Shown one piece after another: positions 951 to 1,359 of a stretch of 64,000 nt of DNA. Numbering within the stretch: the first letter of the stretch is position 1; every line of letters starts with the position of its first letter. Under the pieces are notes generated by a model, which was not told the DNA's origin, did not search any database, and saw only the letters and a program-made list of their open reading frames with translations. The position numbers and the translations under genes are program-made. The DNA comes from an uncultured Gemmatimonadales bacterium (GTDB lineage: Bacteria > Gemmatimonadota > Gemmatimonadetes > Gemmatimonadales > GWC2-71-9). The stretch is from positions 160,001-224,000 of the forward strand of contig CAVYSW010000009.1 of NCBI GenBank assembly GCA_963771275.1. Direction: 5' to 3'.

Positions 951-979
951 CCGGTCGACCGCGCTGGGGGGTCGTCCAC

Positions 980-1143
980 GTGGCTGACGTCCCGGAGCGC
1001 CTGAGCGGAACCCTCGCTGGCCGCCACACGATCGAGCGCGAGCTCGGCCAAGGCGGGATGGCGACGGTCTAGCTCGCCCAGGACGCGAAGCACCACCGCC
1101 AGGTGGCGCTCAAGGTGAGGCGGCCTGGGCTTGCCCCCGTAGG
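980..1143 (+). pseudogene. Truncated N-terminal fragment of a Ser/Thr kinase with in-frame stop
   Basis: GTG at 980 reads MADVPERLSGTLAGRHTIERELGQGGMATV*LAQDAKHHRQVALKVRRPGLA; TAG at 1070-1072 replaces the Tyr/Phe of MATVYLA; kinase similarity ends near 1143. Confidence 0.85.
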
Positions 1144-1275: not shown

Positions 1276-1359
1276 TGCTGGCGGTGGGATTCGAACCCAC
1301 ACGGGCTCGCGCCCGACGGAGTGCCGCTCCGCTGCGTCTGCCAGTTGCGCCACGCCAGC
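1276..1359 (-). tRNA. tRNA-Leu-type cloverleaf with non-canonical anticodon loop (GCGGCAC, nominal anticodon GGC); pseudo-tRNA or tRNA-mimic domain
   Basis: GCTGGCG/CGCCAGC acceptor stem, A73, D-arm GCG-CAACTGGCAGA-CGC, anticodon stem GCGGA/TCCGT, variable arm CGGGC-GCGA-GCCCG, T-arm GTGGG-TTCGAAT-CCCAC; C33 instead of U33; CCC rather than CCA. Confidence 0.8.

Follow-up and report, generated by a model that had tools for sequence, protein, structure and literature searches.

We analysed a window of 64,000 nucleotides (nt) from an uncultured Gemmatimonadales bacterium (assembly GCA_963771275.1, contig CAVYSW010000009.1, positions 160,001 to 224,000), whose genome comprises 3.86 Mb in 11 contigs with 70% G+C. 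Close to the start of this window, on the minus strand, lies a tRNA gene that combines a leucine-type body with an alanine anticodon and belongs to a family that we call X. Downstream of it on the same strand is a predicted gene for a small antisense RNA, which we call anti-X, and the 5' end of this RNA is complementary to the anticodon loop of the tRNA. The features of the locus are listed in Table 1, together with the X paralogues of the genome and a neighboring gene pair.

Table 1. Features of the X/anti-X locus, paralogous X genes and a neighboring gene pair. Coordinates are those of the window unless a contig label is given.
Feature	Coordinates	Strand	Basis or remark
tRNA-Leu-like class II tRNA (X family member), anticodon GGC	1276-1359	minus	ARAGORN, Rfam RF00005, family model R1
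Anticodon loop G32 C33 G34 G35 C36 A37 C38	1321-1327 (32 = 1327, 38 = 1321); anticodon 1323-1325	minus	Sequence and model alignment
Conserved structured 5' leader, ~70 nt	1360-1429	minus	Alignment A3 of 39 loci, helix scan
Leader GCGGU	1425-1429	minus	Pairs with 3' trailer
Leader UUGCCA	1380-1385	minus	Pairs with D-loop U17-G18-G19-C20-A
3' trailer: C74 C75 (1274-1275), one C, GCCGC (1268-1272)	1268-1275	minus	GCCGC pairs with leader 5' end
anti-X promoter-like element: TTGACG (1258-1263), 17 nt, TACGTT (1235-1240)	1235-1263	minus	
anti-X antisense small-RNA gene, ~80 nt	1151-1230	minus	Model R2 match 1140-1230, 52.1 bits
anti-X seed ACGGAGUGCCGCU	1216-1228 (read 1228 to 1216)	minus	Perfect 13-nt complement of tRNA nt 31-43
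anti-X hairpin 1	1195-1215	minus	Reverse complement of D-arm
anti-X A/G-rich linker	Between hairpin 1 and terminator	minus	
anti-X terminator stem-loop	1161-1185	minus	Also called by terminator scan
anti-X U-rich tail	1151-1160	minus	
X paralogues, anticodon CGC	C3:117494, C3:143437, C3:1869917		
X paralogue, anticodon GGU	C10:82433		
Phd/YefM-type antitoxin gene	1837-2121	plus	
PIN-domain gene	2118-2498	plus	Overlaps antitoxin gene

ARAGORN called the gene as tRNA-Ala(ggc) at 1273-1360 of the minus strand. In Rfam, the segment 1276-1359 matched the tRNA model RF00005 with 42.6 bits over its full length (1-71; E 1.1e-05 for the window) and is therefore a member of this family at the gathering cut-off of 29 bits; the ordinary tRNA-Trp and tRNA-His genes of the window reached 72 and 71 bits. 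The family model R1, built from the five paralogues of this genome, scored the gene at 97.9 bits. All seven acceptor-stem positions are paired, U3:A70 included, and the D stem has 3 bp, with C13/A22 unpaired in addition. The anticodon stem has 5 bp, one of them G27-U43, the variable arm has 4 bp closed by a GCGA loop, and the T arm forms 5 of 5 pairs around GGTTCGAAT, with A73 as the discriminator. RNAfold additionally pairs G32 with C38, giving a 6-bp stem and a 5-nt loop.

With the anticodon arm left out, the body of this tRNA is 73-76% identical to the five tRNA-Leu of the genome, 60-69% to the Ser, Tyr and Sec tRNAs, 60-64% to tRNA-Ala and 75-88% to its four paralogues. It retains U8, A14, G18, G19, U55, C56, A73 and a long variable arm. 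Published work on leucyl-tRNA synthetase (LeuRS) gives A73, the U8-A14, G18-U55 and G19-C56 pairs and the variable arm as its recognition elements (PMC2377443). By class II architecture, discriminator, tertiary pairs and variable arm, the body is thus that of a tRNA-Leu isoacceptor; the anticodon is not, since GGC stands in place of NAG or YAA and a loop with G32 and C33 in place of a 7-nt loop with U33. Every ordinary tRNA of this genome has U33. The determinant recognized by alanyl-tRNA synthetase (AlaRS) is the G3:U70 wobble pair. The gene also departs from a tRNA-Ala, as it has U3:A70 and a long variable arm rather than the short one of class I. A normal tRNA set is encoded alongside, with five tRNA-Leu genes (cag, gag, tag, caa and taa) and three class I tRNA-Ala genes (ggc, cgc and tgc), and the window tRNA is accordingly a hybrid that joins the body of one isotype to the anticodon of another. 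An earlier sequence-only reading had described a tRNA whose stems all pair, whose body is of the Leu type with A73 and which lacks G3:U70, and had suggested checking the genome for separate full sets of Leu and Ala tRNAs; our data bear it out on each of these points.

Contigs from two DNA runs of two studies span 1276-1359 with zero differences, and across 900-1700 they differ only at 966, 1072, 1453, 1455 and 1589; the better-matching of the two runs may be the source sample of the assembly. Both carry the same anticodon loop, G32 to C38, as had been read from the sequence, and neither contains a normal Leu anticodon. Because the contigs of two studies agree over the entire gene, it is not an assembly artefact.

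In this genome, five Leu-like genes of class II carry anticodons other than those for Leu, the GGC copy of the window among them. All five lie above the Rfam cut-off (41.4-57.8 bits). The other long tRNA-Ala, -Arg, -Cys, -Gln and -Ser genes called by ARAGORN in this genome fall below it and were discarded as false positives. In the cloverleaf of the five paralogues, 97.5% of 120 pair cells are standard pairs and 12 of the 24 pairs show double-sided changes, including all five pairs of the anticodon stem. None of 500 shuffles paired as well, indicating that the X genes encode RNAs under selection for the cloverleaf. No protein-coding neighbor common to the five paralogues was found. The genome has a single LeuRS gene, of 831 aa, and a search of it for a dedicated synthetase or a LeuRS paralogue found neither. 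The family anticodons CGC, GGC and CAC read GCG, GCC and GUG, respectively, which are among the commonest codons of the genome (69, 52 and 50 per 1000). We rejected a reassignment of GCC and GCG, as these are the main Ala codons and standard translation yields strong Pfam matches.

An anti-X gene lies 45-60 nt downstream of nearly every X copy, on the same strand. When 66 loci were aligned on the complement, they had one architecture in common (the counts of 66 and 69 loci given here include one locus from genome G020; counts of loci reaching 10 nt are unaffected). The sequence A73-CC is followed by a short conserved trailer, a TTGAC-type hexamer, a 16-19-nt spacer and a TAnnnT-type hexamer; after another 5-8 nt come the complement, a 7-bp hairpin, an A/G-rich linker, a 13-bp G+C-rich hairpin and a U-rich tail. 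In 49 of 64 loci the seed is preceded, at a constant distance, by a promoter-like TTG[AC]NN-N16-19-[TC]ANNNT element, compared with 5 of 1280 shuffles. In 63 sequences, the two anti-X helices have 92.5% of their cells paired. Shuffling lowers this to 77.6%, with none of 500 shuffles reaching the observed value, and sliding lowers it to 39-47%; double changes occur in 15 of the 20 pairs. Rfam searches with anti-X and with the leader, at E up to 10, matched no family. By local alignment, the first ~40 nt of anti-X are the reverse complement of tRNA nt 5-43, and its first hairpin can therefore be regarded as an "anti-D-arm".

To describe the pairing, we compared each anticodon arm with the region downstream of it. 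An exact complement to the locus's own arm of at least 10 nt (10-16) is present at +30 to +90 in 57 of 69 Gemmatimonad-type loci. When arms were taken from other loci with different loops, only 17 of 1380 reached 10 nt, and no complement at 12 canonical tRNA-Leu loci exceeded 6 nt. Among 18 pattern matches from other phyla, 17 had complements of 8 nt or less and one, on a contig titled Planctomycetales, had 13 nt. By tRNA position (n = 64), pairing is found in 98-100% of loci at nt 32-38, 94-97% at nt 39-40, 80-95% at nt 27-31, 58-69% at nt 25-26 and about 50% at nt 41-45, which we take as background. The boundary at nt 40 coincides with the transcript start predicted from the promoter-like element. 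Non-Watson-Crick cells at nt 29-40 comprise 27 G-U and 9 A-C, and while the loci are related and this is not a clean test, the excess of G-U argues for RNA pairing rather than mere identity of DNA repeats.

The G32 and C33 of the window tRNA stand opposite C and G in its partner. From copy to copy the anti-X complement follows the loop, positions 32 and 33 included, which explains these two unusual residues. The sequence-only reading had held that the loop divergence does not look like random decay, and the covariation of loops with an antisense partner across the family supports that view. A same-genus locus (G003) that is 82% identical to the window tRNA plus leader has the loop AUCGCAA and a matching seed, indicating that loop and seed changed together. 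At the C10 copy, partner and leader are still of the GGC type while the tRNA has GGU, and the pair is retained as G-U; the Thr anticodon of this copy is thus best seen as a drifted Ala anticodon. The T-G of anti-X opposite C36 is invariant or nearly so (alignment A2), and the stems and nt 32-34 vary freely.

Predicted duplex energies indicate that the pairs are specific. Among the five pairs encoded here, four had the cognate duplex as the most stable one in both row and column (-37.0, -34.2, -32.3 and -39.0 kcal/mol), with non-cognate duplexes at -16 to -29.5 kcal/mol and duplexes with ordinary tRNAs at about -13 to -28 kcal/mol. For the window pair, the cofolded form was 17.5 kcal/mol more stable than the two monomers taken separately. 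What the sequences show directly is the architecture of the loci, their covariation and how specific each pair is.

The other conserved part of the X gene is its leader. Ordinary tRNA genes here have a TTGACN-17-TAnnnT promoter 10-15 nt upstream, whereas the X genes have a leader of ~70 nt instead. Three helices were found in the alignment of 39 loci. GGU before position +1 pairs with A73-C74-C75 and lengthens the acceptor helix to 10 bp, being invariant and 92-95% paired. A second helix of 6 bp joins leader and D-loop, and one of its columns is A-U in 14 loci, G-C in 13, G-U in 12 and A-C in 0. The third joins the leader 5' end, GCGGY, to RCCGC of the trailer (5 bp, 92-100% paired, two co-varying columns). 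"ACC" is encoded after all five X genes and after 0 of 11 ordinary tRNA genes inspected. With these three leader helices, the precursor is expected to be a ~180-nt RNA with a closed fold that sequesters the elbow-forming G18-G19. The leader also contains a seed-like 7-mer. Roughly 27 of 71 loci, the window copy not among them, have it with at most one mismatch to the loop complement, and we make no claim for pairing of this 7-mer with the loop. Upstream of X leaders (1430-1480 of the minus strand in the window) is a GGAAC/GGTTAC-like motif ~20 nt before a TAnnnT-like hexamer, a spacing that, unlike that of ordinary tRNA promoters, may point to a different sigma factor.

We next consider the distribution of the family; most of the genomes compared are metagenome bins, and the loci are phylogenetically related. 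The R1 covariance model was searched in 41 genomes of the same genus, family and order. Its best 30 loci comprised 14 Leu-like tRNAs with CGC, GGC or CAC anticodons (this genome's own copy and one from the unpublished G020 among them) and 16 ordinary tRNA-Leu(UAA/CAA); none of our conclusions depends on the G020 locus. A scan with a pattern that combines a Leu-type D-arm with R35 Y36 A37 M38 and a long variable region, run on one genome for each of 185,579 species, yielded at least 119 stretches, and 57 of 80 loci among the matches listed carry Gemmatimonadota titles, mostly Gemmatimonadales. From these we compiled a census of 70 distinct members, in which R35 Y36 A37 M38 and A73 are partly forced by the pattern. 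The anticodons are CGC (25), CAC (25), GGC (10), GAC (4), AGC (3), GGU (2) and UGC (1). Position 33 is U in 50 members and C in 20, making C33 a recurrent trait of the family, and G32 is rare (3 of 70). The 3:70 pair is U:A in 28, C:G in 26, G:C in 13, C-A in 2 and A-A in 1, with G3:U70 in none. Thus the same kind of tRNA, which the earlier reading had suggested looking for in related genomes, occurs dozens of times more in Gemmatimonadales, mostly with Ala or Val anticodons. As seen so far, X tRNAs with an antisense partner are almost confined to soil bacteria of the Gemmatimonadota, mainly Gemmatimonadales.

A survey with the anti-X model R2 does not depend on the tRNA pattern. In 151 genomes sampled from the phylum, with strict filters and E <=1e-6, R2 was positive in 19: 16 of 71 from the window's family, 2 of 2 from a second family of the same order, and the window's own genome. 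None of 77 genomes from ten other families was positive at these filters, a result that does not show absence. Of 28 R2 matches examined, 19 have a tRNA directly upstream and nine have none or only a remnant. The anticodons of the 19 adjacent tRNAs are CGC (9), GAC (3), CAC (2) and GGC, AGC, GGU, CUC and GUC (1 each), which adds Glu and Asp anticodons to the census, and C36 is retained in 18 of them. Within this genome, R2 found the five partners, one orphan and one weak match. The orphan (C5:15262-15350, minus strand, 54 bits) has a promoter-like element and a terminator with no tRNA upstream, and its seed matches the loop of paralogue C3a (C3:117494-117577). At another locus (L201, G064:C100), the X tRNA is seemingly split by a ~60-nt insertion in the T-loop and the partner RNA is intact.

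We consider it highly likely that the two genes form a module and that pairing between their RNAs explains the anticodon loop. As an explanation of the whole, the best is probably a two-gene module that acts as an RNA-RNA lock on a Leu-type tRNA. The first gene would yield a tRNA-Leu-derived RNA whose 70-nt leader pairs with the D-loop and 3' trailer of the same molecule. The second would yield an RNA of ~80 nt from its own promoter-like element, ending at its own terminator, whose first 14-16 nt are complementary to the anticodon loop, the 5' strand of the stem and nt 39-40. This small RNA may dock on the anticodon loop, invade the anticodon stem and the D-arm, and so mask or unfold the tRNA, and the leader may act likewise in cis until it is processed. 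Under such an arrangement, G32 and C33 would have arisen by joint change of loop and partner and not under ribosomal constraints. If both RNAs are expressed and the tRNA is charged by the single LeuRS, the unmasked tRNA would be expected to read the abundant GCN and GUN codons, and the module would be either a gated mistranslation device or an RNA-only device resembling a toxin-antitoxin system. That the module gates a Leu-inserting reader of Ala and Val codons is a tentative proposal, suggested by sequence features. Of the roles put forward in the earlier reading, namely a Leu-charged missense reader of Ala codons, a non-ribosomal Leu donor and an anticodon-nuclease decoy, the first would be compatible with our data and enters into the explanation given here. 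In favor of a real tRNA function are the LeuRS elements, the one LeuRS, the encoded C74-C75, the C36 of 18 of 19 adjacent tRNAs and the anticodons for the commonest codons. A more speculative idea is an RNA-only toxin-antitoxin-like system with the tRNA as toxin: charged with Leu and reading one of the commonest Ala or Val codons, it would flood the proteome with Leu unless locked by the leader in cis (on G18-G19 and the 3' end) and by the antisense RNA in trans (on the anticodon), with the five to six copies per genome kept from cross-reaction by private loop/seed codes.

Several observations weigh against the lock module or against a decoding role of its tRNA. The window's own promoter-like site is weak and was not flagged by a stricter consensus scan. 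No terminator was found in the interval between tRNA and anti-X, so that a single read-through transcript folding back in cis is equally possible. One pair, C3b, has a degenerate match of -18.8 kcal/mol. The nine of 28 partner genes in relatives that lack an intact tRNA beside them imply that the module decays often. As for transcripts, no RNA run was listed as covering 600-2600, and two RNA runs that share only a species label contained 0 reads on the stretch, which counts neither for nor against expression. Gene conversion can homogenize inverted repeats that lie close together, without selection on RNA; the ratio of G-U to A-C argues otherwise, in loci that are not independent. The census is partly shaped by its pattern, as stated above. 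For decoding in particular, C33 in 20 of 70 members is a poor fit, as is the 5-nt loop that a G32-C38 pair would leave in the window copy.

The roles of the two RNAs could be reversed, with the small RNA as a regulator of ordinary tRNA-Ala or tRNA-Val loops or of mRNAs and the tRNA mimic as its sponge or decoy. Anti-X is indeed built like a trans-acting small RNA, with its seed at the 5' end, a linker rich in A and G, and a U tail behind the terminator; the C3a seed pairs with the canonical tRNA-Ala(CGC) at -28.1 kcal/mol; the orphan anti-X exists without a tRNA; and a sponge is reportedly cut from a tRNA precursor in the case of the leuZ spacer. However, the seeds differ among orthologues and paralogues and only the adjacent tRNA changes along with them, which disfavors an external conserved target because the seed should then have stayed the same. 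In four of five sets, pairing with canonical tRNAs is also weaker than cognate pairing by 7-24 kcal/mol, and the orphan seed fits the loop of an X paralogue (C3a). We therefore regard a sponge as unlikely. A plain missense or ambiguous-decoding tRNA, charged with Leu and reading GCC as the earlier reading suggested, with the downstream complement as a functionless by-product, would accord with the Leu-type body, the intact cloverleaf, the lack of G3:U70 in all 70 members and the restriction of anticodons mostly to Ala and Val codons. It also has precedents in nev-tRNAs (PMC3333845) and tRNAProX (PMC11415595). This is improbable because a by-product would not keep a conserved promoter-like element, two co-varying helices and 98-100% loop pairing over 64 loci, and because C33 and the possible 5-nt loop of the window copy are unfavorable for decoding.

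Explanations that do without an RNA-RNA pair fare worse. The inverted repeats could be a DNA-level feature, serving a recombinase or inversion switch or remaining from duplications, with no pairing of RNAs. The locus is a true inverted repeat with arms ~100 bp apart and a promoter-like element between them, copy number and location differ among related genomes, and the window copy abuts a truncated kinase gene fragment. Yet mismatched cells favor G-U over A-C by 27 to 9, and by 12 to 0 in the leader/D-loop column, and the terminator and hairpin co-vary as RNA. No recombinase was found among the neighbors of the five copies, and no rearranged joints were seen in two DNA assemblies, in which contigs would hide rare variants; we think this explanation very improbable. 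The earlier reading had offered an anticodon-nuclease decoy and pointed to the nearby PIN gene. A role as decoy or as substrate of such a nuclease, possibly the PIN (VapC-like) toxin itself, would be in keeping with the adjacent Phd/PIN pair and with the irregular tRNAs reported alongside toxin-antitoxin genes (PMC5389517). This link was not supported: the five paralogues differ in their neighbors, only the window copy lies beside a Phd/PIN pair (one other paralogue has a Phd-like gene 2.8 kb away), and the co-varying partner is an RNA rather than a protein, leaving the decoy with scarcely any likelihood. The least credible account, which we give almost no weight, is a decaying tRNA-Leu pseudogene or an assembly error. 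The low Rfam score of 42.6 bits relative to ordinary tRNAs, the non-U33 loop and the adjoining pseudogene fragment would suit decay, but the stems are intact with compensatory changes, two assemblies agree and the partner matches the loop base for base.

Hybrid tRNAs of related kinds have been described. The nev-tRNAs of nematodes are class II tRNAs derived from tRNA-Leu, with Gly or Ile anticodons, that are charged only with Leu according to the accessible text (PMC3333845). Like the X tRNAs, they combine a body derived from tRNA-Leu, long variable arm included, with an anticodon that is not for Leu, exist next to a full normal tRNA set and are lineage-specific. They differ in being eukaryotic and in having anticodons for rare codons, whereas those of the X family match the commonest codons; their charging has been demonstrated, and no antisense partner or structured leader is described in that text (PMC3333845). 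For the X family, charging with Leu is a prediction. The tRNAProX of Streptomyces and Kitasatospora and the allo-tRNAs are closer in being bacterial, with body and anticodon in disagreement and Ala and Thr anticodons included, to judge from the accessible portions of both papers (PMC11415595, PMC5389517), and allo-tRNAs have been noted near toxin-antitoxin genes (PMC5389517). In contrast to the single LeuRS without paralogue here, tRNAProX has a dedicated ProRSx (PMC11415595), and those same portions mention no antisense RNA partner (PMC11415595, PMC5389517). Allo-tRNAs, as there described, have an 8/4 or 9/3 acceptor/T architecture, which the mature X tRNA, with 7/5, does not share. A 10-bp acceptor helix forms in X only through leader pairing in the precursor.

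The arrangement also recalls known antisense systems. In hok/sok and in RNA I/RNA II of ColE1, a small RNA encoded beside its target has its own promoter and pairs through a short seed, and the ends of the target RNA pair with each other. The X module is alike in its adjacent antisense RNA with a promoter-like element and a seed, and in a self-locked target, through pairing of the leader with the trailer and the D-loop. It differs in that the targets there are a toxic-peptide mRNA or a replication primer and here a tRNA-shaped RNA, and in that the X genes are non-overlapping, lie on the same strand and are related by an inverted partial copy. As predicted, anti-X thus has what defines the RNA antitoxin of a type I toxin-antitoxin system, being adjacent and antisense with its own putative promoter and terminator; the target does not qualify, since it is tRNA-shaped and involves no open reading frame rather than being an mRNA for a small toxic peptide. 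A sponge for small RNAs is reportedly cut from a tRNA precursor, the 3' spacer of glyW-cysT-leuZ. There too the transcript of a tRNA-Leu gene pairs with the seed of a small RNA, but it is the spacer that pairs and the body is an ordinary decoder, whereas X pairs through its anticodon loop, stem and D-arm with a dedicated mirror-copy RNA. T-box leaders recognize a tRNA by specifier-anticodon pairing and receive its NCCA end in a UGGN bulge, regulating a downstream gene. Anti-X similarly reads a tRNA through the anticodon, except that its pairing extends over 14-16 nt or more and opens the stem. We found in anti-X no UGGN element, no regulated downstream gene and no Rfam match, and it is not a T-box; it ends at its own terminator, beyond which lies a convergent kinase fragment.

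Literature searches, which did not cover subscription journals, turned up no paper describing Leu-like tRNAs that carry Ala or Val anticodons in Gemmatimonadota and none describing an antisense RNA directed at the anticodon of a tRNA, and within the searched literature the pairing of an X tRNA with a mirror-image antisense RNA has not been described before. If the module works as proposed, it would be, to our knowledge, the first case of a complete tRNA gene kept with a dedicated anticodon-binding RNA, and the tRNA body would be a new class of target for bacterial antisense regulation. It would then offer a testable route to regulated mistranslation or to a tRNA-based brake on growth in a little-studied soil phylum, and would show why near-universal rules such as U33 break where a loop is selected for pairing with RNA. 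The private loop/seed codes would amount to a ready set of orthogonal RNA pairs. Should the tRNA have no part in decoding, these loci would still constitute a new structured RNA family of at least 60 examples with strong covariation and no Rfam entry, in which a ~180-nt precursor containing a tRNA domain and a leader that pairs with it is accompanied by a mirror-image partner.

Outside Gemmatimonadota, the matches listed by the scan also included 18 Leu-like tRNAs of class II whose anticodons are not for Leu, scattered over single genomes from many phyla; 17 of these 18 lack an antisense partner. Their anticodons are mostly UGC (Ala), with UGU, UAU, GAU, UAC, AGC and CGC as well. Examples (loci labelled L072, L091, L124, L088, L141, L107, L095 and L121 are among them) come from an Azospirillum isolate, with two copies, and from metagenome-assembled genomes labelled Bacteroidota, Verrucomicrobia, Planctomycetota and Dehalococcoidia. 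Hybrid Leu-body tRNAs may thus be more widespread than is on record. The contig titled Planctomycetales mentioned above (L137) has an X-like tRNA (CGC) with its 13-nt complement at +47, as in Gemmatimonad modules, and could reflect transfer between phyla or a mis-binned contig.

The remaining features concern the neighbors of the module. The Phd/PIN pair at 1837-2498 is an ordinary type II pair, and no link of it to the tRNA was found. On the other side of the module, an intact Ser/Thr kinase gene ending at 950 is followed directly by a fragment of a Ser/Thr kinase N-terminus (977-1129, plus strand) with the glycine-rich loop, the VALKV lysine motif and an in-frame stop; the fragment abuts the anti-X terminator and is convergent to it. 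At the DNA level it is similar to 24 sites of the genome, among them tandem kinase genes that follow each other at ~2.7 kb (C10:319943-330718), and the X module seems to have taken the place of the remainder of a kinase gene. We rejected an interpretation of 980-1140 as a multi-copy non-coding element, which its 24 BLAST matches in the genome and many per relative had brought up, because it is the conserved 5' coding part of Ser/Thr kinase paralogues. Ser/Thr kinase genes lie directly beside two of the five X modules, the window copy (1-950) and the C10 copy (L004:5515-7710), and a same-genus locus (G004:C146) also adjoins one, which could be due to chance given at least 24 kinase paralogues.

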